Part shown: positions 1-39,041 of the stretch, piece after piece
Layout of the letters: each line of letters begins with the position of its first letter
Position numbering within the stretch: the first letter of the stretch is position 1
Source: a bacterium
Lineage (GTDB): Bacteria; Hydrothermota; Hydrothermia; UBA1063
Assembly (NCBI GenBank): GCA_030019025.1
Contig: JASEFR010000010.1
Coordinates: forward strand, 1-56,067
DNA: 56,067 bases
Direction: 5' to 3'
Translations under genes and position numbers: made by a program
Notes under the pieces: generated by a model
What the model saw: the letters and a program-made list of their open reading frames with translations, nothing else
Databases searched by the model: none
Told to the model about the DNA's origin: nothing

Positions 1-36
1 CATGCCCTTGGTGTCAGTGAGGACGCCAAGGGCATG
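1..36 (-). terminator. GC-rich inverted repeat, candidate terminator closing the peptide-maturation cluster
   Basis: CATGCCCTTGG (1-11) is the exact reverse complement of CCAAGGGCATG (26-36). It lies 34 nt past the stop of the 70..195 ORF. Any U-tract would fall outside the window, so this is unverified. Confidence 0.3.
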
Positions 37-69: not shown

Positions 70-195
70 CTATTTATTCTCAACCTTTTCTGGCTTCTCC
101 TTCTTGCACTTAACAAGGAAACACCCACAGTATTTTTTACTCCACGAACGTAATGTTTCCTTTATGTTTTCCTTTGTTTTGTTGATCCATTTCAT
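70..195 (-). CDS. Precursor-like peptide paralog C (41 aa): MKWINKTKENIKETLRSWSKKYCGCFLVKCKKEKPEKVENK
   Basis: Hand translation of the minus strand. ATG at 195..193 is preceded by GGGGGTG, which overlaps the TAG stop of the upstream gene; stop TAG at 72..70. It shares the MKxIN start and CGCFLxxC core with the ORFs at 5122..5226 and 5237..5350. Confidence 0.7.
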   Translation of the reverse strand: MKWINKTKENIKETLRSWSKKYCGCFLVKCKKEKPEKVENK

Positions 196-204
196 AAGCA
201 CCCC

Positions 205-2163
205 CTAAAATTCTAACTTTAACTTAACAGAGAAACTTCTGCTTGTCATTTCATAACTCCCTGTATCCTTTCTCCAGCCCGCATCACTCAGGAAAAGGAT
301 GGAGATACAATCAGTTAAATACAAGTACCCAACGTTCTTAAGGTAAAGGGCTTGAGTCTGGCCATCAGTGTTGTGCTCCACATAGGGTTTTATAACAAAT
401 CTATCCCTGACAATAGGGACCAGTCCAAAAAGCTGGAAGATTGAAGTTTTCTCCTCGCCATATCTCAAAATTTGGAAATTTACACCGGCATTGAAAAGGT
501 TGAGAGGAGAAATCTTGAGCTTTAAAGCCGCGTTATAACTATTTTCGCCAAGGTATTCACCCTTCATAAACGATAGTCCTACGTTGTTGTAGCTTGCCGG
601 GGCGTAAGAGAAGGCAATACCTAAAAAAGAGTAGTACCTGATGTCTTCTGGAAGGAAATCGAGATATGCCAATTCGTCTTTAACATAACTTAAACCCAAT
701 CCATAAGGACCTCTTGCACCACTTATTTCAAAATTTATATACCTTTCCACAAGGTCAGCACTTGAAAGGTCTCTCAATTCATCAAAATAAAACTGGGGTT
801 TGAAATAAGTAGCCTTTCCGAGGGGAATACCATATCCACAGTTAAAAGAATATTCTCTCACATTTTCGAAATATATAGGGCTAAAGGGCATCACAAAATT
901 TTCACCAATCTGTAAGAAAGAGGCCGATGCTTCGAGCCCCTTAAACTCACTTCTCCTATAAAACCTTACATAATACAAATTGGACTTTTCATCAAATCTA
1001 CGAGATATTTGAGATTGAAAGCCAAAACCTACTTTTGGAGCTATAACTCCACTGAAATCAAAGGATGCCAAGGAATAGGATGTCGGACTCCAGAGATAAA
1101 ATGTTCCTATATTAAACCCGTGTAAGGGTGCAAAGTTAATTTTGCCAAAGGAAAGGGTGTCGTAGCTTTCTTCCTTCGGTAAAAAAGCAATCCCACTCAG
1201 CTTTTCGGACTTGGTATAAAACTTTGCACCAAAGCTAATGTCTTCAAAAGCCCTCGTCCAGATTAGCTGATAGGGAAGAGAGTAAAGTTCTTTACCCTCC
1301 ATGAAGACTTCCCTTTTCTCGGGGTAATATATAGGCCTTCTTCTAAGGGAGATTTCCTTCACATCTGCTTCAATTTCAGAAAAGTCGGGTTTTACAACAA
1401 TATCAAGTACCGTTGAAGTTCCCTTCTTAAATCTGAAATTGCCTCCAAAGGATAAACGATTGAAGTATAATGTGTCTTGCTTTTGTGTCCATCCTCTCAC
1501 ATAAAAACTATTCCTCATTTGAAGGGTGCTTCTATAACTCTCTTCACTTTTTAAACCTTCAAAGCCAATATTTACCTTATGCATATGAGAAAGGGATTGG
1601 AATGAACCTTCAATATTTGAAAACTGAAACTGGCCAGCTCCCGCTATGAATCTCCCAAGTTTCACGCCCCATGGATTCCTTGTATAGGAAATTTCAGAAA
1701 GGGGAATTAAAATTAAGACGTCATAACCATAATCGGTTATCTCAGTCTTTGCCTGCCACCTACCATCCCATTCTTCTACGTTATCCCCGCCTTCCGAGAG
1801 AATAAAATCCCTTTTAGTGCCCAAAGGGTTCACCTGAAAACCGTAGGCAGTATTCCCATTACCTCCAGTATCCAGGAAGAGGAGAACGAAATCGTCTGCC
1901 ATGATGTCTTCCTGGTCATCCTTTTTAACCGTTGAAGATATCTTCGTTTTCTGGTAGTTTTTAAAGTATACTGCAAAGGTATTGCCCGATATGAGTCCAA
2001 TTCTAAAGAAGGTGGACTCTTCCGGGAAACTGTCAAGACTCGGATATACCTGGTAAAGCCTAAGGATGCTGTCGGGAAGAGATGCCTTTTTAAGGAACTC
2101 TTCCACACTCTCAGTATAGATAGGTTCTATTATGAGTTTGGCAATTAACAAAAGCAGCACCAT
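205..2163 (-). CDS. Outer-membrane protein, CBM9-like N-terminal domain plus DUF5916-type beta-rich region
   Basis: 652 aa ORF with SD AAGGAGG before the ATG and a hydrophobic N-terminus. The segment DDFVLLFLDTGGNGNTAYGFQVNPLGTKRD...WDGRWQAKT resembles the CBM9/DOMON-like module of the DUF5916 family. The remainder is rich in aromatic-ended beta strands. It starts 10 nt after the ABC gene. Confidence 0.55.
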   Translation of the reverse strand: MVLLLLIAKLIIEPIYTESVEEFLKKASLPDSILRLYQVYPSLDSFPEESTFFRIGLISGNTFAVYFKNYQKTKISSTVKKDDQEDIMADDFVLLFLDTGGNGNTAYGFQVNPLGTKRDFILSEGGDNVEEWDGRWQAKTEITDYGYDVLILIPLSEISYTRNPWGVKLGRFIAGAGQFQFSNIEGSFQSLSHMHKVNIGFEGLKSEESYRSTLQMRNSFYVRGWTQKQDTLYFNRLSFGGNFRFKKGTSTVLDIVVKPDFSEIEADVKEISLRRRPIYYPEKREVFMEGKELYSLPYQLIWTRAFEDISFGAKFYTKSEKLSGIAFLPKEESYDTLSFGKINFAPLHGFNIGTFYLWSPTSYSLASFDFSGVIAPKVGFGFQSQISRRFDEKSNLYYVRFYRRSEFKGLEASASFLQIGENFVMPFSPIYFENVREYSFNCGYGIPLGKATYFKPQFYFDELRDLSSADLVERYINFEISGARGPYGLGLSYVKDELAYLDFLPEDIRYYSFLGIAFSYAPASYNNVGLSFMKGEYLGENSYNAALKLKISPLNLFNAGVNFQILRYGEEKTSIFQLFGLVPIVRDRFVIKPYVEHNTDGQTQALYLKNVGYLYLTDCISILFLSDAGWRKDTGSYEMTSRSFSVKLKLEF

Positions 2164-2173
2164 AAAAACCTCC

Positions 2174-3790
2174 TTATTTTGAAGAATTGTGTCCCACTTC
2201 CGCTAAACATATTTTTTCAAAACCACCCAAATCTATTTCTGCTGACGGTAGGGCCACAATTAAACCCCTCCCTTTGGAATAATTCTCTATCAGATTCCAA
2301 TAAAACGCTTTTGAAACGTCATCAAGATTTGCGAGTGGTTCATCCAAAATTAGAAAATCACAGTTTTCCCGCGAAAGTGCGATTAGCAAAGAAAGTTTTT
2401 GCTTCTCACCTGCCGAGAGTTGAGTGAATTTAACATCGTCCCTCTCCTTAAATACATCTTTCTTAGCAATTTCTCTTAATTTTCCGTTAGAGATCAGTGT
2501 TAGATTATCTTTTAGCGTGGGTAAAAGTATAGGCGGGTAAAAGGAAACGGATAGCCTTTTAAAGTAAGTTTTCTTACTAACTTTTTCTAAAGGTAAGGTA
2601 CTATTGAGTTTAACGGTCCCCTCAGATGGATTAATCAGCCCTGTAATAACTTCAATTAATGTTGACTTTCCGGAACCATTCGGGCCAAGAATTACATATT
2701 TTTTACCCTTCACAAACTCAAAAGATAAATCCTCTATAACCCTGTTGTCTCCAAAGTCAACAGTAACATTCTCAAGACTGATGGCATTTATTGATCCCTC
2801 AATATTAACCTCACCTCCACCATTCGCCACGGCTTTAAACTCCTCAATTCTTCCGATAACGCCTGAAGTTGTCTGTATCTCAATGAAAATTTCAGATATG
2901 CTATCAATAGGGGATGAGATGTACCTCATAAGCTCCATAAAAGCCACCAGACCACCTACCGTTAAATTACCCCTTACTATCTCAATGGTACCAAAGAGAA
3001 AAACTCCTACAGGAAGAAAATCACTTAAAACCCCATAAATACCCGAATAAATACCGCTCACTTCCGCTCTTTTTAGCCTTATTCCCAAATAATCCCTTAA
3101 AGCATAGCCTAATATCGTTTTCACAGGTGACACCACTTGCAGTAAATTTACAATCTTAAAACTCTTTAAAACTTCTACAGCAACTTCCCCGAACCTTGCT
3201 TTAAACTCCTGAAATTTCAGAGAGTAATCTCTTATTCGATTCCCAAACAGCAAGTTTAGAAAGTAAAAACCCGTAGACAAGAAAAGTACAAATAAAGTAA
3301 GTTTCCAGGAAAGCCTCAGACAGACAATAAGGCCAAAGAAAAAGATCAAAAAGACCTTTATAACAAAGGTTACCGTAGTAGTTAAGCTCTCTTCAACTTC
3401 AGCTGGCTCATTGAAAACTCGTGAATAAAAATACCCCGAATCCTTCTCTTTAACCTTTTTAAAAGGTAGCTGATAATAAACATAAAGAAGCTCATCCACC
3501 AGCTTTTCATAAATTCCGTTTTTTAACTTCTGATCCACCACCTTGGAAAAGTAAAGGGTAACTTCTCTCAGAACAACAACTACCAAAATGATGAGAGAAT
3601 ACAAACCGAGAAGCGGAAGATCCTTTGCAGGAATAATTCGGTCAATGATCTCCTTGAAAATTAAAGGAACAGGCAATTGAAGAGCAGTGCCTAAAAGGAG
3701 TAAAATTAAGGACAGGGCGAATAAACTGCCTTGAAAAAGGGTGTATCTTTTAAAATACCCTATGAATAGCTTTAAATCACTTTGCCGCAA
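2174..3790 (-). CDS. ABC exporter, fused permease plus ATPase, with no peptidase domain
   Basis: 538 aa with an N-terminal multi-TM region. Walker A is GPNGSGKST, the signature-like motif is LSAGEKQK and Walker B is FLILDEP. It overlaps the radical SAM gene by 14 nt. I could not find a canonical Q-loop Gln or H-loop His. Confidence 0.85.
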   Translation of the reverse strand: MRQSDLKLFIGYFKRYTLFQGSLFALSLILLLLGTALQLPVPLIFKEIIDRIIPAKDLPLLGLYSLIILVVVVLREVTLYFSKVVDQKLKNGIYEKLVDELLYVYYQLPFKKVKEKDSGYFYSRVFNEPAEVEESLTTTVTFVIKVFLIFFFGLIVCLRLSWKLTLFVLFLSTGFYFLNLLFGNRIRDYSLKFQEFKARFGEVAVEVLKSFKIVNLLQVVSPVKTILGYALRDYLGIRLKRAEVSGIYSGIYGVLSDFLPVGVFLFGTIEIVRGNLTVGGLVAFMELMRYISSPIDSISEIFIEIQTTSGVIGRIEEFKAVANGGGEVNIEGSINAISLENVTVDFGDNRVIEDLSFEFVKGKKYVILGPNGSGKSTLIEVITGLINPSEGTVKLNSTLPLEKVSKKTYFKRLSVSFYPPILLPTLKDNLTLISNGKLREIAKKDVFKERDDVKFTQLSAGEKQKLSLLIALSRENCDFLILDEPLANLDDVSKAFYWNLIENYSKGRGLIVALPSAEIDLGGFEKICLAEVGHNSSK

Positions 3791-5075
3791 AACTGTGCTC
3801 CTTTAAATCGTAAATAGTTTTTAACGATAACTCAAGGCTGTATCTCCAAATTTCACAACGATTTTTTCCAGTTTTTAATTTGTAAAGAGGACATCCTCCT
3901 CCACATACAGGGAGATACTTACAGTTATAACACTCCTTGTCGAGTATCTTTAAGTTTTCCCACTTAAGAACACTTCTTGCGTCCTCTCTGTAATTATCCA
4001 CATACCCTATTGATTCCCTATCTCTCCCCACGAGGTCAAAGCACTTTTTAATGCTTCCATCCGCGTCTATCAAATAGTGAAAAGGTGTAATACCAGCACA
4101 AAAGACATAGGAAAGTTCAGGATAAACCTCATAGGGAAAGCCGTACTTGTAAAGTAGAGGCACGATCTTCTCAGCGTAAACTTTACCGTATTCTTCGTCT
4201 CCAAAAAGATTCTCGCCAAAGTCAATTTTGTCCTTTTCACCCGTAACTGGTGAAAAGTAGACCTCCAAGTTATTTTTTTTAATCTTAGCAAAAATTTTCA
4301 AAAGGTCCTCAATATGCTCTATGTTTTCCTTATCAACATTAACGCGTATCCTGATAACAAATTCAGGAAAAGTTTCAATAACCCTTTCCACATTTTCAAA
4401 GATCTTTTCAAAAGTACCACCCTTATTTTTCAGAAATCGCCTTTTATTATGAATTTCAGGGGGTCCATCAAGAGTTATCTGGGCAGATTTCAAAGAGGTC
4501 TTTTCGATCAACTCTCCTGCGGTCTCTATGTCAAAGAGATAACCATTGGTGACAATATCGGACGAAAATTTAAATCCCATTTTTTCAGCCAGCTCTTTAA
4601 AGAATTGGCCAAATTCAAAAAGCACATCTTTACACAGTAAGGGCTCACCACCGTAAAAGGAGAGGGAAACATCTTCAGGTTTAAAAGCATCTACTTTTTC
4701 CCTAATAAAATCTAAGACCTTCCCCTTAGTTCCCTCAGAAAGCTTCACGTTCTTAATCCCCGATTCAAAACAATAATAGCAGCCAAAATTACAACCCGTT
4801 GTGGGAACAATGGTAAAAAGAAGCTTCCGAGAATAATATCTGCTCATAAAGAAATTTCTTAAATAATAGCCCTTTTCATCGAATCTGTTCTCAACGATGA
4901 ATCCCGCATCAACAAATTCTTGCAGGATTTTCTCATCGTTAATTTCTGGAAACTTCCTGTAAAACTCTTCGTACCGCTTATCCAGTAAAACAAAATTCTT
5001 CGTTAAGATGTTATACAGCAAAAGCCCATCTTCGTGTTCAATTTCAATATTATAAAAATTTTTGTGAAATCCCAT
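3777..5075 (-). CDS. Radical SAM/SPASM-domain peptide maturase
   Basis: 432 aa. The CxxxCxxC motif sits in TTGCNFGCYYCFE. The C-terminal SPASM pattern reads FCAG...DGSIKKC...CYNCKYLPVCGGGC...RC. An N-terminal extension of about 90 aa precedes the SAM cluster, where RRE/PqqD-like leader-binding domains normally sit. Confidence 0.9.
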   Translation of the reverse strand: MGFHKNFYNIEIEHEDGLLLYNILTKNFVLLDKRYEEFYRKFPEINDEKILQEFVDAGFIVENRFDEKGYYLRNFFMSRYYSRKLLFTIVPTTGCNFGCYYCFESGIKNVKLSEGTKGKVLDFIREKVDAFKPEDVSLSFYGGEPLLCKDVLFEFGQFFKELAEKMGFKFSSDIVTNGYLFDIETAGELIEKTSLKSAQITLDGPPEIHNKRRFLKNKGGTFEKIFENVERVIETFPEFVIRIRVNVDKENIEHIEDLLKIFAKIKKNNLEVYFSPVTGEKDKIDFGENLFGDEEYGKVYAEKIVPLLYKYGFPYEVYPELSYVFCAGITPFHYLIDADGSIKKCFDLVGRDRESIGYVDNYREDARSVLKWENLKILDKECYNCKYLPVCGGGCPLYKLKTGKNRCEIWRYSLELSLKTIYDLKEHSFAAK

Positions 5076-5080
5076 TTCAA

Positions 5081-5106
5081 CCTCCCTTTTTAGACCGGAA
5101 GGGAGG
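5081..5106 (-). promoter_or_regulatory. Hairpin that sequesters the maturase Shine-Dalgarno, located between pepA and the radical SAM gene
   Basis: The mRNA-sense sequence is CCTCCCTTCCGGTCTAAAAAGGGAGG. CCTCCCTT pairs with AAGGGAGG over 8 bp with a 10-nt loop. The 3-prime arm is the SD, 5 nt before ATG 5075. Confidence 0.5.
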
Positions 5107-5121
5107 TGGGTTTTTTAATTT

Positions 5122-5226
5122 TTACACCTGGTCCTTCCTACAAATTGTTAAAAAGCAACCACAAATAGGTGGCAATATAGATGGTAAATTCACTTTCTGG
5201 CTATTATTAATATTAATTGCCTTCAT
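5122..5226 (-). CDS. Precursor-like peptide paralog A (34 aa): MKAININNSQKVNLPSILPPICGCFLTICRKDQV
   Basis: Hand translation. SD GGAGGTG lies 6 nt upstream of ATG 5226..5224; stop TAA at 5124..5122. It sits 46 nt upstream of the maturase start. Confidence 0.75.
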   Translation of the reverse strand: MKAININNSQKVNLPSILPPICGCFLTICRKDQV

Positions 5227-5236
5227 TCTTCACCTC

Positions 5237-5350
5237 CTACTTTTGTTCGCTGTCCCTCGGTGCCCTCTGATCACACCTTGTCAGAAAGCATCCACATAGA
5301 AAATCTATAATGCCTTTTTGTGGTGCATTCTCTCTGTTTATGTATCTCAT
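5237..5350 (-). CDS. Precursor-like peptide paralog B (37 aa): MRYINRENAPQKGIIDFLCGCFLTRCDQRAPRDSEQK
   Basis: This is the internal Met35 of the 71-aa track ORF 5237..5452. It is preceded by GGAAGGAGG-N5-ATG, whereas the upstream ATG at 5452 has no SD. The TAG stop overlaps the SD of pepA. Confidence 0.75.
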   Translation of the reverse strand: MRYINRENAPQKGIIDFLCGCFLTRCDQRAPRDSEQK

Positions 5351-5376
5351 TTTTACCTCCTTCCGTTTTTGGCTAC

Positions 5377-5388
5377 CCTCCCTTCCGG
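5377..5388 (-). repeat. 12-nt element CCGGAAGGGAGG (mRNA sense), perfectly complementary to 5095..5106
   Basis: The plus strand reads CCTCCCTTCCGG at 5377-5388 and CCGGAAGGGAGG at 5095-5106. On the transcript the two elements flank pepB-pepA. Confidence 0.6.
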
Positions 5389-5417
5389 CATACTTTTTAA
5401 TAAGCAAAAAGTATGCC
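5387..5417 (-). promoter_or_regulatory. 12-bp perfect hairpin in the 5-prime leader of pepB
   Basis: GGCATACTTTTT (5387-5398) and AAAAAGTATGCC (5406-5417) are exact reverse complements with a 7-nt loop. No U-tract follows on the sense strand. Confidence 0.4.
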
Positions 5418-5440
5418 AAAAGAGAGTCAGGATGTAAGTT

Positions 5441-5446
5441 ATTGTA
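5441..5446 (-). promoter_or_regulatory. Candidate -10 box TACAAT for the precursor/maturase operon
   Basis: The minus strand reads GAGTTACAATAAC. Only a weak -35 (TTCCAT-like) is present. The large palindrome lies immediately upstream. Confidence 0.3.
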
Positions 5447-5473
5447 ACTCATAAAAATGAGAAAATGGAAATA

Positions 5474-5639: not shown

Positions 5640-6275
5640 TTATATTTTCTTGTGGCAGAACCACCAATCGTAGCAGGTATATTCCTTTGGTCTTTTCTCA
5701 GCGGTTTCAACATCATTGGCCGGTGGCACAATAACCTCACTGCCTATAAGCTCGTTATTTGGCCAGTTCGCTGGCAATGCCACTTTATGCTGGTCAGTAA
5801 CTTGCAGACCTTTAACCATTCTGAGTATCTCGTCCATGTTCCTTCCAAGCTCCTGCGGATAATAGAGCACTGCCCTAAGAATGCTTTCAGGGTCAATTAT
5901 AAACACTGCTCTAACAGTGTTTGTGCCTTTTGAAGGATGAATCATGCCGAGTAGTTCTGCAATCTGACCTCTATCATCTGCGATTACAGGGAATTTTATT
6001 TCTATACCAAGTTTTTCCTTTATCCATTCAATCCACTTAATATGGGAGAAAACCTGATCAATAGAAAGGCCAATGAGCTCGGTGTTCAACTTTTTGAACT
6101 CGTCATACCTCTTCTGGAAAGCAACGAATTCGGTTGTGCACACAGGCGTGAAATCAGCAGGATGACTGAACAGTACTACCCACTTACCCTTGTAGTCTTC
6201 GGGAAACTTGATCATCCCATGGGTTGTTTTTGCTGTAAATGCAGGTATTTTTTCACCTAATAGTGGCAGTCCCAT
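5640..6275 (-). CDS. Peroxiredoxin (1-Cys/Prx6-like)
   Basis: 211 aa with the motif [24 protein letters not shown] precedes the ATG. Confidence 0.9.
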
Positions 6276-6317
6276 TTTTAACCCCCTTGTTTTAAATTTA
6301 ATCTTGTAATCATTTTA

Positions 6318-6346
6318 ATTTTATATATTATAGCGCGTTTTGTCAA
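6318..6346 (-). promoter_or_regulatory. Sigma70-type promoter of the peroxiredoxin gene
   Basis: The minus strand carries TTGACA (6346-6341), a 17-nt spacer and TAAAAT (6323-6318). A leader of about 40 nt with an SD follows. Confidence 0.55.
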
Positions 6347-6542
6347 GAGGGTACTTTACACCGCACAATTTTTTCAGAACCAACAATTCAACAAGAACAA
6401 GCAGGCAAATCTTGCATCTGAACTACCAAAAAATTTCCCCTTGGTATATAGAATTTTCAACTCTACTTAACTGCAAAAAGTAGCCGTTGCCGAGTTAAAT
6501 TGTGAATTTTCGCACGCTTTGCCCTATAATAATATACTATCT

Positions 6543-6615
6543 GGGGATGTAGCTCAGCTGGGAGAGCATCGGCTTTGCAAGCCGGGGGTCAGGGGTTCGA
6601 ATCCCCTCATCTCCA
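6543..6615 (+). tRNA. tRNA-Ala (anticodon UGC); CCA not encoded
   Basis: The cloverleaf folds by hand. The acceptor stem GGGGATG/CATCTCC includes the G3:U70 Ala identity pair. The anticodon loop is TTTGCAA and the T-arm is AGGGG-TTCGAAT-CCCCT. TATAAT at 6525-6530 lies 12 nt upstream. Confidence 0.95.
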
Positions 6616-6617
6616 GT

Positions 6618-7760
6618 TTATTTTTTTATAGAGTCAAGAATTTCTCTGGCCTTCTCCCGAGCTCTTATATCGTAATTTTCAAGAGTTTCAAGGGTTATAT
6701 TTTCAACATTTTCAAAACTCAAACAGGTTTCTATTACGACCCTTTCAATGTCAAGAAAACTAATATATCCCTTTAAAAAGGCGTCAACGGCAACGTCATT
6801 TGCCGCGTTCATCACACAGGGCATCACCCCTCCAGCCTTTAACATTTCATAAGCCAAGTTAAGCAAAGGAAACCTGTCAAAATCCGGCTTATAGAACTCT
6901 AAGGCACCGACTTCAGTAAGATCAAGCTGCACAAAATCACATTCCCACCTTTCTGGATAAGTGAGCGCATATTGAATGGGTATTTTCATGTCAGGATACG
7001 ACATATGAGCGACAAAGGCACCATCTCGTAACTTTAGCATACCATGGACAATTGATTGGGGATGGATCAAAACCTTTATCTTTTCAGGAGGCAAATCAAA
7101 CAGCCAGTAAGCTTCTATGACTTCTAACCCTTTGTTCATAAGGGTCGCTGAATCAACCGTTATCTTTTTTCCCATCCTCCAGACAGGATGCTTTAATACA
7201 TCCTCAATGGTTACCTTTTCCATTTCTTTACGGGTTAAAGTCCTGAAAGGTCCACCCGAAGCAGTCAAGATTAGTACATCCATGTCTCTCTTGTATTTCT
7301 CAAAAAGCTGAAAGAGGGCAGAATGTTCGGAATCAATGGGTATCAGTTCGCCACTGGAATTCAACCAGGTTTCTTTTACAATCGTTCCAAAAGAAACAAG
7401 GGTTTCTTTATTTGCCAGTGCAACCCTCTTACCCCTCTTCAAACCGTGAATAGTTGGATAAACGCCAATATTTCCTGACGTGGCTACAACAATAACATCA
7501 ACATCTTCGCGCTCTGAGACTTCTATCAAGCCTTCTTTACCATATATAGTAGTTATAGGAGGTGATGAAATTTTTAAATTTCCAGTAACTACAGCCACTT
7601 TTGGCTCAAACTCTTTTATTATCCTGTAATAACCTTCCAAATTTTCGTGGACAGAAAAGGCAACAAGTTCAAACTTTTCTCTATATTTTGAAATTACCCT
7701 TAGGGTATTGGTACCTATACTTCCCGTTGCCCCGAAGAGGGCTACTCTACTTCTTCCCAT
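6618..7760 (-). CDS. dxr: 1-deoxy-D-xylulose-5-phosphate reductoisomerase
   Basis: 380 aa with the N-terminal NADPH motif LFGATGSIGTNTL and family-wide similarity. Confidence 0.95.
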   Translation of the reverse strand: MGRSRVALFGATGSIGTNTLRVISKYREKFELVAFSVHENLEGYYRIIKEFEPKVAVVTGNLKISSPPITTIYGKEGLIEVSEREDVDVIVVATSGNIGVYPTIHGLKRGKRVALANKETLVSFGTIVKETWLNSSGELIPIDSEHSALFQLFEKYKRDMDVLILTASGGPFRTLTRKEMEKVTIEDVLKHPVWRMGKKITVDSATLMNKGLEVIEAYWLFDLPPEKIKVLIHPQSIVHGMLKLRDGAFVAHMSYPDMKIPIQYALTYPERWECDFVQLDLTEVGALEFYKPDFDRFPLLNLAYEMLKAGGVMPCVMNAANDVAVDAFLKGYISFLDIERVVIETCLSFENVENITLETLENYDIRAREKAREILDSIKK

Positions 7761-8235
7761 CCACTATGAGCTCTTGTATTAACTTTTCAAACTCATCCTT
7801 TGAAACAAATCCAATCTTGACATCATGAATGTAGCCCTCTTTATCAATAATAAAAGTCGTGGGTATATACTGGAGACGATAAATAGCATTATAACTTTCT
7901 AATATTTCCTTCGTTGCCATTGCAACAGGATAATTCATTTTGTTTTTCCTGTAAAACTCTTTAACCGGCTCAATACCTCTATCAACGGAAATGCCTACTA
8001 TTTCCAGCCTTTTAGCGTATTTTTTCTTCAACTCCACAAAACCGGGAATTTCCTTTTTACATGGTGGGCACCATGTAGCCCAGAAATCAAGGATTACTAC
8101 TTTACCCCTAAGGTCGGACAAGGCCACCTTCTTCCCATCAATAGTGGTGACTGTAAAATCGGGAGCCAGCTTTTTCTGCTGCGCCGATAGTATCCCTATT
8201 AGAAGTAGAATCGTGCCGAATATCTTAAACTTCAT
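7747..8235 (-). CDS. TlpA/ResA-like thiol-disulfide oxidoreductase, secreted
   Basis: 162 aa with a signal peptide and the WATWCPPCKKE thioredoxin motif. It overlaps dxr by 14 nt. Confidence 0.85.
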   Translation of the reverse strand: MKFKIFGTILLLIGILSAQQKKLAPDFTVTTIDGKKVALSDLRGKVVILDFWATWCPPCKKEIPGFVELKKKYAKRLEIVGISVDRGIEPVKEFYRKNKMNYPVAMATKEILESYNAIYRLQYIPTTFIIDKEGYIHDVKIGFVSKDEFEKLIQELIVDGKK

Positions 8236-38833: not shown

Positions 38834-38892
38834 ACTAAGCCCTTTGAACTGACATTTTTGAATTACATAATATTTGTGATAAAATAATATTC

Positions 38893-38989
38893 GGCACTGG
38901 GGGAGCTGGGTAAAAGCCTGGCTGAGAGGCCTGCCTAAAAGGCGACCCCTCGAACCTGATCCGGGTAATGCCGGCGAAGGGAAAGTGCC
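38893..38989 (+). promoter_or_regulatory. TPP (THI-box) riboswitch
   Basis: The P1 stem pairs GGCACT with AGTGCC. Conserved elements CTGGGGGAGC, GCTGAGA and ACCC..GAACCTGATCCGGGTAATGCCGGCGAAGGGA are present, directly upstream of thiC. Confidence 0.9.
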
Positions 38990-39041
38990 AGTAGCTTTCC
39001 CATACGCTCAGCCCTCCCCCTTAAAGCCAGAGGAGGAAAAG

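Follow-up and report, generated by a model that had tools for sequence, protein, structure and literature searches.

Three short genes on the minus strand of the window (the whole 56,067-nucleotide stretch of DNA that was analysed) are real and strongly conserved, and each encodes a peptide with a CGCFL[TV]xC core. They bracket an operon for a predicted radical SAM (rSAM)/SPASM maturase, an ABC exporter that has no peptidase domain, and a protein of 652 aa predicted to form an outer-membrane beta-barrel (Table 1). With a probability of about 0.7, the peptides are RiPP precursors that would dock on the maturase through a leader, receive thioether cross-links, and be exported through the ABC transporter and the barrel. 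As judged from sequence comparisons, they most likely form an uncatalogued precursor family among rSAM/SPASM-modified cysteine-rich RiPPs, one that has an outer-membrane barrel as an unusual partner. So far, the system is seen only in uncultured WOR-3/Hydrothermia bacteria.

Table 1. Coordinates of the peptide genes, neighbouring genes and RNA elements in the window.
Feature	Position	Strand	Description
GC-rich hairpin	1..36	-	CATGCCCTTGG...CCAAGGGCATG; about 35 nt past the A3 stop
Peptide A3	70..195	-	41 aa, net charge +8, MKWINKTKENIKETLRSWSKKYCGCFLVKCKKEKPEKVENK; ORF and SD read directly
Predicted outer-membrane protein	205..2163	-	652 aa; divergent DUF5916 relative; AF2 model
ABC exporter	2174..3790	-	538 aa, fused TMD-NBD; PF00664 and PF00005
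Predicted radical SAM/SPASM peptide maturase	3777..5075	-	432 aa; family scans, AF2 model, invariant Cys
Predicted stem-loop	5080..5107	-	A2/maturase gap; 3' arm is the maturase SD AAGGGAGGT, 5' arm is the anti-SD ACCTCCCTT
Putative precursor peptide A2	5122..5226	-	34 aa, MKAININNSQKVNLPSILPPICGCFLTICRKDQV; ORF and SD read directly
Putative precursor peptide A1	5237..5350	-	37 aa, MRYINRENAPQKGIIDFLCGCFLTRCDQRAPRDSEQK; ORF and SD read directly

Peptide genes and their operon

The coordinates, strand and translations given for the three mini-ORFs by a first-pass annotation all match on direct reading, and the synonymous-codon differences that it listed among the three cores are correct on rechecking. 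Each ORF also has a strong Shine-Dalgarno (SD) sequence of its own, as had been claimed: GGAAGGAGGT for the A1 ATG at 5350, GTAGGAGGTG for the A2 ATG at 5226, and TAGGGGGTG for the A3 ATG at 195. The last of these overlaps the stop codon of the preceding 652-aa gene, and A3 starts 9 nt past that codon; its translation is probably coupled to that of the barrel. When CGCF[LF][TVAIM]xC is searched as a degenerate DNA pattern, its three matches in 56 kb are exactly the three mini-ORFs, against a mean of 0.00 in 100 dinucleotide-preserving shuffles.

The exporter gene overlaps the maturase gene by 14 nt. Its product lacks an N-terminal C39 peptidase domain, and its alignment with peptidase-containing bacteriocin ABC exporters covers their positions 149-650. 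No leader peptidase is encoded. The 652-aa protein is modelled (AF2; pLDDT 88.5, pTM 0.85) as an N-terminal beta-sandwich (residues ~15-200), which aligns with the N-terminal region of CBM9-annotated DUF5916 homologues, followed by a predicted barrel of about 24 strands (residues 215-651). Foldseek matches the model to PapC/FimD ushers, LptD, Occ porins and TonB-dependent transporters with probability 1.00 but TM scores of only 0.2-0.36. The protein is a remote homologue of CBM9-like and DUF5916 (PF06452/PF19313) proteins (E 1e-20 to 1e-5), with which it shares invariant residues and the two-part layout; its DUF5916 match (E 1.8e-4) scores 20.8, below the Pfam gathering score of 22.6. However, typical members share only 15-19% identity with it, and it belongs to its own clade, found within rSAM-ABC operons in every locus examined. 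We found no mention of DUF5916 in the literature searched.

Two RNA structures accompany the genes. A hairpin sequestering the maturase SD is predicted at the same place, with different sequences and energies of -13 to -18 kcal/mol, in the window and in related loci L001, L018, L024, L003, L012 and L050, but not in L008. It may reduce translation of the maturase relative to the precursors, or stabilise the transcript. Downstream of A3, a hairpin with an 11-bp stem (the 72-nt tail is predicted to fold at -28.8 kcal/mol) is a candidate operon terminator, where the window edge precedes any possible T-run. Strong hairpins also occur 3' of A3 in L001 and L024.

Conservation and selection in related loci

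The first-pass annotation treated loss of the ORFs or of their cysteine pattern from homologous loci as grounds for rejecting them, and both are retained. Among loci whose maturases are 51-91% identical to that of the window, two upstream C-G-C-F-x-[TV]-x-C peptides are present in most, and a downstream C-x-C-F-[LM]-V-K-C peptide in all with the relevant contig end. Every maturase orthologue recovered belongs to an rSAM-ABC-barrel operon, and the exporter and barrel genes are syntenic across all related loci. Even where maturase identity between lineages drops to 51-58%, all three orthologous peptide types persist. The distal upstream type, A1 (M-[RK]-Y-I-N-R ... CGCF[LI][TV]xC-D-[EQ]-R), has orthologues at the same position in L001, L018, L024, L003, L008, L012, L050 and L042, and the proximal type, A2 (M-K-x-I-N ... 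LPPICGCFxTxCRK), in L001, L018/L024, L003, L008/9, L012 and L050. Upstream precursors are missing from three lineages (L005-7, L017 and L010), with two of these contigs stopping short of the A3 position. The polycationic downstream peptide A3 (net charge +6 to +11 across the family) is the universal member of the system, is present also in loci without upstream peptides, and is located 10-20 nt past the barrel gene in every locus with that end on the contig. A DNA scan across metagenomes returned 31 matches to the A3 core. Seven carry an M-x-W-I-N leader and sit directly 3' of a barrel homologue wherever the flank is on the locus, and the remaining 24 have neither leader nor operon.

The core proposed as invariant keeps its cysteines throughout the related loci, but its glycine varies (G, S, A, T or R). 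Conservation at core position 4 equals that of the cysteines (F in 32 of 33 sequences, Y in one). All 33 sequences have T, V or, once, I at position 6; in A3 this residue is V or I, and is followed by an invariable K at position 7. The first cysteine falls at residue 16-25.

For A1, pN/pS was 0.12-0.19 in comparisons of the four closest lineages and 0.35 between L018 and L024, which are nearly identical; it was 0.25-0.41 for A2 and lowest, at 0.03-0.05, for A3 (pS 0.76-1.18). Because pN/pS is 0.03-0.41 overall while synonymous sites are near saturation (pS up to about 1), the mini-ORFs are translated and under purifying selection, in agreement with the selection on a translated product previously proposed. 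This selection covers whole peptides, including non-cysteine core residues and the N-terminus.

None of the three peptides matches an NCBIfam or Pfam model at E<=10, whereas genuine Clo7bot and SCIFF peptides match their own models in the same library; the core, which the first-pass annotation did not recognise as any named RiPP precursor family, thus falls outside the catalogued ones. Their description as unannotated stands for the 34-aa and 37-aa forms, which are absent from public sets, but not for the 41-aa A3, which is already deposited and has a near-identical cluster member named 'hypothetical protein' in a WOR-3 MAG. A1 is public only as an over-extended 71-aa gene call (P0122), and the exact A2 sequence is absent from a 15-billion-protein collection. 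Searching 1.84 billion representative proteins exhaustively with a profile gave 11 relatives; those with visible names are called 'hypothetical protein' at most.

The maturase and known systems

The predicted maturase has an RRE-like domain at residues ~1-80, a CX3CX2C motif (C95/C99/C102) and seven conserved SPASM cysteines (C326, C345, C382, C385, C391, C395 and C407). Its AF2 model (pLDDT 93.1) matches CteB (5WHY/5WGG) best among PDB entries, with a TM of 0.70-0.72 over the full length including the N-terminal domain. Identity to any solved enzyme is 14-20% in structural alignments, and scores fall far below the cut-off of every named family HMM, although the top models (TIGR04463, Clo7bot, CefB and PapB) all describe maturases of cysteine-rich peptides. 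The cross-link type is not deducible from sequence. TIGR04463 ('rSAM_vs_C_rich') is the top model for the window maturase and its orthologues and aligns over nearly the full length including the N-terminal domain, yet the window enzyme scores 250.5 bits against a cut-off of 525, which no orthologue reaches (211-250 bits).

SCIFF systems (precursors TIGR03973; maturases CteB/Tte1186/ScfB, TIGR03974) share the three-module RRE, rSAM and SPASM fold. The CteA leader, MKHIKILN... (M-K-H-I-K), resembles the M-K-[WYH]-I-N-K of the family described here, and in both systems the first cysteine lies ~20 residues from the N-terminus (position 21 in the CteA chain of 5WGG, MKHIKILNGSTLKDSLKKGGC). Both cores also have a threonine a few residues past a cysteine, which in SCIFF is the site of a Cys-Thr C-gamma thioether (PMC8172795). 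However, the core here has three cysteines in eight residues (C-x-C-F-[LI]-[TV]-x-C) compared with six in 45 for SCIFF. The window peptides do not match TIGR03973 (a SCIFF sequence scores 90 bits), and the maturase scores 64.9 bits against the TIGR03974 cut-off of 425. SCIFF peptides were described from Clostridia (PMC8172795), whereas the present family comes from WOR-3/Hydrothermia MAGs, and its loci include outer-membrane machinery, with an additional barrel gene and a 3' precursor gene in the operon.

Clo7bot (TIGR04333/TIGR04334), also defined bioinformatically, has several short paralogous precursors of 30-45 aa per locus, a leader of the M-K-Y-[IV]-x-K type (MKY[IV][IV]KP) with the first cysteine at position 16, an ABC exporter, and an rSAM/SPASM maturase (P0086) about 30% identical to that of the window. 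To our knowledge, it has no characterised product. Its core differs (Y-C-[FY]-x-C-x3-C-x3-C-x3-C), and the one locus examined has neither an outer-membrane barrel nor a 3' precursor. TIGR04333 gives no match to the window peptides at E<=10 (true members, 36-49 bits), and the window maturase scores 237.9 bits against a cut-off of 600 (P0086, 655). PapB of the freyrasin-type ranthipeptides and the sactipeptide enzymes are likewise rSAM/SPASM proteins, joining cysteine sulfur to a nearby residue's carbon in a short repeated motif. PapB strictly requires Cys-X3-Asp (PMC8172795), whereas the window peptides have no Asp acceptor motif, their cross-link position is only inferred, and the maturase scores 119 bits against the PapB cut-off of 340. 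The suggestion that the class is undescribed is accordingly sound for the precursor family, which is uncatalogued, but overstated as a whole. Because the leader motif and maturase tie the system to SCIFF/Clo7bot-type RiPPs, it is best seen as a new family or variant, not as a demonstrably new class.

Proposed maturation and alternative explanations

We infer the cross-link chemistry and biological role of the peptides as follows. The M-[KR]-x-I-N-[KR] N-terminus would form a beta-strand that docks on the RRE-like domain of the neighbouring maturase, by analogy with the CteA leader, which binds the CteB RRE in this manner while a cysteine ligates Aux I (PMC6231123). Docking would bring the core, 16-25 residues downstream, to the active site, where the open iron of an auxiliary [4Fe-4S] cluster could take a core cysteine as ligand. 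Chemistry initiated by the 5'-deoxyadenosyl radical would then form one or more intramolecular cross-links, the likeliest product being a sactionine- or ranthionine-type Cys-S to carbon thioether with the beta-branched residue conserved at core position 6 (Thr/Val) as preferred acceptor. CteB/Tte1186 join cysteine to Thr C-gamma at i+2 or i+5 (PMC8172795). The product might pass the inner membrane through the peptidase-less exporter, and the dedicated large barrel could offer a route across the outer membrane or a lodging site in it. A3 is probably the ancestral substrate, and A1 and A2 appear to be old paralogues located ahead of the SD-sequestering hairpin.

A maturase with different chemistry, converting cysteine to formylglycine as anSME does, forming a C-C or C-O cross-link at the invariant Phe, or epimerising residues, is unlikely but deserves weight. 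The conservation of that Phe fits such an enzyme, as does the rank of anSME as second-best match in both structure and sequence, and the SPASM relatives SuiB, ChlB and TigE in the Foldseek list catalyse non-thioether reactions. Conversely, the closest full-length structure and all top HMMs are maturases of cysteine-rich peptides, and three invariant cysteines within eight residues are most simply read as donors. The anSME target motif is C/S-x-P/A-x-R, which the core lacks. Function is not predictable for rSAM enzymes at such identity (PMC10288494), a further point for chemistry other than thioether formation. That the mini-ORFs are chance ORFs or regulatory leaders, such as Cys-sensing attenuators, with no function of their own is highly improbable. 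They are very short, and two lie in the operon 5' region beside a hairpin covering the next gene's SD, but the third paralogue is at the 3' end, where attenuation would be senseless. The shuffle test, pN/pS values and cross-lineage conservation effectively refute this explanation.

It is also improbable that the peptides, above all A3, serve the ABC/outer-membrane-barrel machinery as small three-cysteine accessory subunits or plugs, which might bind a metal or cluster, with or without modification by the maturase. The persistence of A3 where A1 and A2 are missing, its SD overlap with the barrel stop codon, its low pN/pS and its high charge would suit such a role, and LptD, among the structural matches, is known to have a small partner (LptM/YifL). 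However, A3 shares its leader motif and core with A1 and A2, which lie immediately upstream of the maturase, where precursors are classically found, and SCIFF and Clo7bot precursors use the same leader type. A3 also lacks a hydrophobic segment or signal peptide, and would therefore need the ABC exporter to leave the cytoplasm.

Two observations touch on the fate of the downstream peptide. Its location 9-20 nt past the barrel gene in every lineage, together with its persistence without A1 and A2, would suit A3 equally well if it were not secreted but served as a partner of the barrel. A lipoprotein-like signal (LSF[NS]GC) is found on the downstream peptide of the divergent clade L014-L016 (37-39% identity); this signal is in line with an accessory subunit and speaks against a simple ABC-exported RiPP.

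Three short genes with a shared cysteine core

The first-pass annotation had placed three short ORFs on the minus strand, and direct reading of the DNA recovers all three with the proposed positions and translations, each with a strong Shine-Dalgarno (SD) sequence ahead of its ATG. Written as the degenerate DNA pattern for CGCF[LF][TVAIM]xC, the core matches three times in 56 kb, solely at the sites of these peptides (A1, A2 and A3), and has 0.00 matches in 100 dinucleotide-preserving shuffles. Comparison of the DNA also bears out the claim that the core codons differ synonymously among the three genes. The 33 distinct family sequences all keep the three core cysteines. At core position 4, 32 of them have F and the other has Y, and position 6 holds T or V apart from a single I; the first cysteine falls at residue 16-25 from the N-terminus. 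For the A3 peptides, net charge ranges from +6 to +11 across lineages (+8 in the window). A GG motif is absent from the family sequences inspected.

Features of the peptide operon, its surroundings and related loci (window operon entries in gene order)
Feature	Locus	Position	Strand	Description
A1	window	5350-5237	minus	37 aa; MRYINRENAPQKGIIDFLCGCFLTRCDQRAPRDSEQK
A2	window	5226-5122	minus	34 aa; MKAININNSQKVNLPSILPPICGCFLTICRKDQV
SD-covering hairpin	window	5080-5107	minus	maturase SD predicted to pair with an upstream anti-SD, in the gap that separates the last upstream precursor from the maturase gene
Maturase	window	5075-3777	minus	432 aa
ABC exporter	window	3790-2174	minus	538 aa
Barrel protein	window	2163-205	minus	652 aa
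A3	window	195-70	minus	41 aa; MKWINKTKENIKETLRSWSKKYCGCFLVKCKKEKPEKVENK
GC-rich hairpin	window		minus	at window edge
Public call of A1-type peptide	window	5237-5452		begins at in-frame upstream ATG
Thioredoxin-like protein, Dxr, 1-Cys peroxiredoxin	window	5640-7760
tRNA gene (RF00005)	window	6543-6615	plus	70.4 bits
TPP riboswitch (RF00059)	window	38889-39000	plus	72.8 bits
SD-covering hairpin	L001	~5964-5998
SD-covering hairpin	L003	~7972-7999
SD-covering hairpin	L012, L018, L024, L050
A3-type peptide	window, L001/L044, L003/4, L005-7/L032, L008/9/L021, L012/13/L023, L024, L042, L050/51
Peptide regions of the clade with 37-39% identical maturases	L014/L015	7289-7910 and 12926-13111
Peptide region of the clade with 37-39% identical maturases	L016	8296-8454
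Second rSAM-ABC pair	L010	722-5083
Second rSAM-ABC pair	L003	13989-16857
Second rSAM-ABC pair	L016	351-3312
Thioredoxin-like protein, Dxr, 1-Cys peroxiredoxin	L050	7001-15177
Thioredoxin-like protein, Dxr, 1-Cys peroxiredoxin	L003	5732-17299

Nei-Gojobori counts among the closest lineages, for short sequences and small counts, give pN/pS ratios of 0.03-0.05 for A3 (pS 0.76-1.18), 0.12-0.19 for A1 (pS 0.59-0.91) and 0.25-0.41 for A2 (pS 0.34-0.86); the nearly identical L018/L024 pair of loci gives 0.35 for A1 (pS 0.10). The direction is consistent with purifying selection in all 12 comparisons. Because synonymous sites are near saturation and the peptides are nevertheless kept, the three genes are translated and subject to purifying selection, and the selection first read from the codons of the paralogues holds when lineages are compared (pN/pS 0.03-0.41).

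Searched against NCBIfam and Pfam with a limit as loose as E<=10, the window peptides have no match, and this includes the precursor models for the six-cysteine ranthipeptides SCIFF (TIGR03973, cut-off 50 bits) and for Clo7bot (TIGR04333, cut-off 31 bits). As positive controls with the same NCBIfam library, a SCIFF sequence scored 90.4 bits against TIGR03973, and Clo7bot peptides from locus L052 scored 35.7 and 49.3 bits against TIGR04333. The Clo7bot comparison rests on TIGR04333 because the true Clo7bot peptides also gave no match to PF27857 in the Pfam used. A family profile retrieved 15 real clusters from 5.8 billion clustered proteins and, in an exhaustive search, 11 matches among 1.84 billion representatives, and the source names of these relatives, where given, go no further than 'hypothetical protein'. 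Literature searches on the core motif, TIGR04463, Clo7bot and DUF5916 found nothing relevant; matches to the string CGCFI were to the software name 'CGCFinder'.

In a collection of 15 billion proteins, A2 and the correctly started A1 are absent, and A1 is present solely as a 71-aa over-extension. Public calls of the A1-type peptide (including the proteins P0122, P0125 and P0126) begin at in-frame upstream ATGs and are 51-71 aa long. Within these calls lies the conserved A1 start, M-[RK]-[YH]-[IV]-N, which has an SD of its own; existing annotation therefore mis-starts the A1-type gene.

Operon layout and distribution across lineages

Orthologues of the maturase form a tight set at 51-90% identity, followed by a gap to 37-39% and then the bulk of homologues at ~30-35%. 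Where named, the sources of the tight set are 'candidate division WOR-3', 'Candidatus Hydrothermia' and, once, 'Caldiserica' MAGs. All recovered orthologue loci carry the operon of radical SAM (rSAM), ABC and barrel genes. On every contig that includes the 3' end of the barrel gene, an A3-type peptide begins 10-20 nt past that end and follows the pattern M-[KEN]-W-I-N-[KR] ... C-[GSAT]-C-F-[LM]-V-K-C-[KR]. Most lineages have two upstream peptides that sort into orthologous A1 and A2 types, with one in L042 and none in L005-7, L017 or L010. For the last two (maturases P0008 and P0009, respectively), no CxCF-type ORF was found upstream, and both contigs stop before the A3 position. A maturase search of genome contigs gave one true orthologous locus only, and a Bacteroidales enzyme 28% identical to the maturase is without such peptides at its locus.

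When 241 million metagenome records were scanned at DNA level for exact matches to the A3-type pattern C-x-C-F-[LF]-V-K-C-[KRHQ]-K, 31 stretches emerged, seven of which encode a peptide starting M-x-W-I-N. A barrel homologue lies directly upstream in six of these seven cases, with ABC and maturase genes also on three of the six contigs; the remaining locus, L029, stops short of that flank. The 24 further stretches have neither the M-x-W-I-N start nor operon genes, and look like the chance background that we estimate for a ~39-bit pattern. The main inference of the first-pass annotation thus holds: these short peptides form an uncatalogued Cys-triad family tied to a dedicated rSAM/SPASM maturase.

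The hairpin that covers the maturase SD is predicted in seven of eight loci, representing six of seven distinct lineages, at -13 to -18 kcal/mol and with differing sequences. It may hold translation of the maturase below that of the precursors. An Rfam scan of the whole window detected no RNA family in or near the operon. Predicted sigma-70 sites do not exceed those in shuffled sequences, and the promoter scan is therefore uninformative for this phylum.

A more distant clade (L014-L016), whose maturases are 37-39% identical, keeps the rSAM-ABC-DUF5916-like layout. Four upstream peptides are found there with M-x-W-[IML]-K leaders, three with C-x-C-x4-C cores (CKCYGTGVC, CRCNGPGAC and CTCHSGGC) and the fourth, MKWIETVF...ECGCFGIP, with a CGCF core alone. 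The downstream peptide in this clade combines a lipoprotein-like N-terminus (MKWLKKAVAALLSFNGC or VKWLKKVAAAILSFSGC) with CSCVGTDVC or CTCVRPNVC, and to judge from its sequence may be anchored in the outer membrane. This clade thus also has C-x-C-x4-C spacing and peptide genes divided between the 5' and 3' sides, and both traits are therefore older than the CGCFL core.

The maturase, exporter and barrel proteins

The maturase matches PF04055 (71.5 bits) and the SPASM model TIGR04085 (48.9 bits), both above cut-off. Its CX3CX2C motif (C95/C99/C102) and exactly seven conserved SPASM cysteines (C326, C345, C382, C385, C391, C395 and C407) are invariant in 60 homologues, and this combination of radical SAM motif and seven-Cys SPASM domain places it in the superfamily of radical SAM/SPASM RiPP maturases. 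With seven such cysteines, one iron of an auxiliary cluster would therefore be without a protein ligand. In CteB, the thermocellin/SCIFF thioether synthase, the open auxiliary-cluster site is taken by a substrate cysteine (PMC6231123).

At the family level, the best HMM matches are to maturases of Cys-rich peptides, each far below its curated cut-off: TIGR04463 (250.5 bits, cut-off 525), Clo7bot TIGR04334 (237.9, cut-off 600), the Cys-every-fifth maturase CefB (216.5, cut-off 600), PapB (119.1, cut-off 340) and SCIFF maturase TIGR03974 (64.9, cut-off 425). It also stays below the cut-offs of the FlmE/OhkG (180.1, cut-off 500), geopeptide (155.9, cut-off 400) and CcpM (96.3, cut-off 500) maturase families. 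The orthologues likewise fall short of TIGR04463, at 211-250 bits, and score 206-216 bits against TIGR04334, compared with 655.3 for P0086, a true Clo7bot member. The structural model of the maturase (pLDDT 93.1) superposes over its whole length on CteB, which bears a leader-recognition domain (RRE, of PqqD-like winged-helix type), with TM 0.70-0.72 and 444-459 aligned columns; the next matches are anSME, ChlB and SuiB. The superposition includes the N-terminal domain (1-80), modelled with strands at 3-31 and helices at 33-41, 48-57 and 67-80 at pLDDT >90 and without a Pfam match. The RRE of CteB has its beta-sheet extended by the CteA leader (PMC6231123).

The ABC exporter aligns only to ~149-650 of TIGR01193-type models of peptidase-containing bacteriocin exporters. 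Because this is the transporter part alone, the HMM alignment places no C39 peptidase domain, which cleaves double-glycine leaders, in this protein.

The barrel protein scores 20.8 bits (E 1.8e-4) against DUF5916 (PF19313), below the Pfam gathering score of 22.6. It matches many PF19313 proteins by phmmer, and some of its orthologues have a precomputed PF19313 match, so that on sequence comparison it is a remote DUF5916 relative. Its AlphaFold model (pLDDT 88.5, pTM 0.85) has an N-terminal beta-sandwich followed by ~24 long beta-strands. Foldseek returned large outer-membrane barrels only (PapC/FimD ushers, LptD, Occ porins and TonB-dependent transporters) at probability 1.00 and TM of only 0.2-0.36, and these generic matches, with no specific structural homologue among them, support a barrel fold class for the model rather than a specific family. 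The N-terminus of the protein (MVLLLLIAKLIIEPIY...) is a very short hydrophobic stretch without a positive n-region, which is atypical as an outer-membrane-protein signal peptide, and the ORF has no alternative upstream start.

Proposed pathway, classification and genomic surroundings

The window peptides begin with M-[KR]-x-I-N-[KR], similar in sequence to the leader MKHIKILN of the SCIFF precursor CteA, whose fragment in structure 5WGG is MKHIKILNGSTLKDSLKKGGC. Clo7bot precursors start with MKY[IV][IV]KP and have their first cysteine at position 16, compared with 16-25 here, whereas the core is unlike those of both SCIFF and Clo7bot. This start and cysteine position therefore look like SCIFF/Clo7bot leader logic, which is the strongest argument that the peptides are substrates of the adjacent maturase. 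The analysis establishes the genes together with their co-occurrence, synteny and purifying selection, as well as the class and fold of the maturase and the fold class of the barrel; beyond these, a pathway can be projected. The leader would dock on the RRE-like domain of the maturase, a core cysteine would ligate the auxiliary [4Fe-4S] cluster Aux I, radical H-abstraction would be followed by thioether formation, and the product would leave through the ABC exporter and barrel. As a hypothetical acceptor we favour the beta-branched T/V that occupies core position 6, i+5 from Cys1 and i+3 from Cys3, by analogy with the Cys-Thr C-gamma link formed by CteB/Tte1186 (PMC8172795). A thioether from Cys sulfur to C-alpha would make the mature product a sactipeptide, and one to C-beta or C-gamma a ranthipeptide.

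A role as attenuator or leader peptides is rejected because the paralogue A3 lies at the 3' end and purifying selection extends over the whole peptide, and the window peptides are not lipoproteins or signal peptides because direct reading shows neither a hydrophobic segment nor a lipobox. A3, which lies tight behind the barrel gene, occurs in every lineage where that end is recovered and is strongly cationic, is probably the ancestral substrate; it may instead be a partner or plug of the barrel. The class had looked undescribed, which stands insofar as the family is uncatalogued; a demonstrably new class does not follow, since the leader motif and maturase are akin to those of SCIFF and Clo7bot. 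The system fits best among the SCIFF/Clo7bot-type, rSAM-modified Cys-rich RiPPs, as a new variant, and its unusual additions are the dedicated outer-membrane barrel and the barrel-coupled third precursor. A bolder proposal, which we consider unlikely, is that of a new RiPP class whose products leave the diderm cell by a new secretion route. The maturase would tie the eight residues of C-x-C-F-L-[T/V]-x-C into a minimal knot with cross-links that have no precedent, such as a Cys-to-Val C-gamma thioether, which would be the first of its kind. The ~24-strand DUF5916-type barrel would be a previously unrecognised outer-membrane channel or receptor dedicated to the modified peptide, and A3, made in step with the barrel, would be its cargo, plug or ligand. 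If true, this would open a first way into the function of the CBM9/DUF5916 family, which is widespread but uncharacterised.

Filed as a variant of known systems, the peptides extend the rSAM/SPASM Cys-rich RiPPs by a precursor family that is clean, well-delimited and uncatalogued. To our knowledge, the host phylum has hardly any members in culture, and natural products from it are not known. The M-K-x-I-[NK]-type leader, similar in sequence between SCIFF, Clo7bot and the present peptides, offers a practical handle for short precursors missed by gene callers. At eight residues and three Cys, the core is small enough to appeal as a minimal substrate for studying how radical SAM enzymes form thioethers. 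Strict coupling to a DUF5916-type barrel, with a precursor gene that probably shares its translation, supplies a testable first hypothesis for one DUF5916 branch and bears on how modified peptides pass the outer membrane of diderm bacteria.

A second rSAM-ABC pair occurs beside the main system in L010, L003 and L016, with no CxCF-type peptide found adjoining these pairs. In L010, the rSAM of this pair is truncated to 192 aa and accompanied by an ABC protein, and a barrel resembling TonB-dependent receptors (PF00593/PF13620) takes the place of the DUF5916-type one. Elsewhere in the window, a TPP riboswitch is unrelated to the peptide operon, and a tRNA gene separates the peroxiredoxin gene from dxr a short way upstream of the operon region. 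Thioredoxin-like protein, Dxr and 1-Cys peroxiredoxin genes are neighbours of the operon common to distant lineages. In the window, L001 and L018, the peroxiredoxin gene is on the 5' side of the operon, but in L003 and L050 it is on the 3' side, a shift that looks like local rearrangement around a vertically inherited locus.
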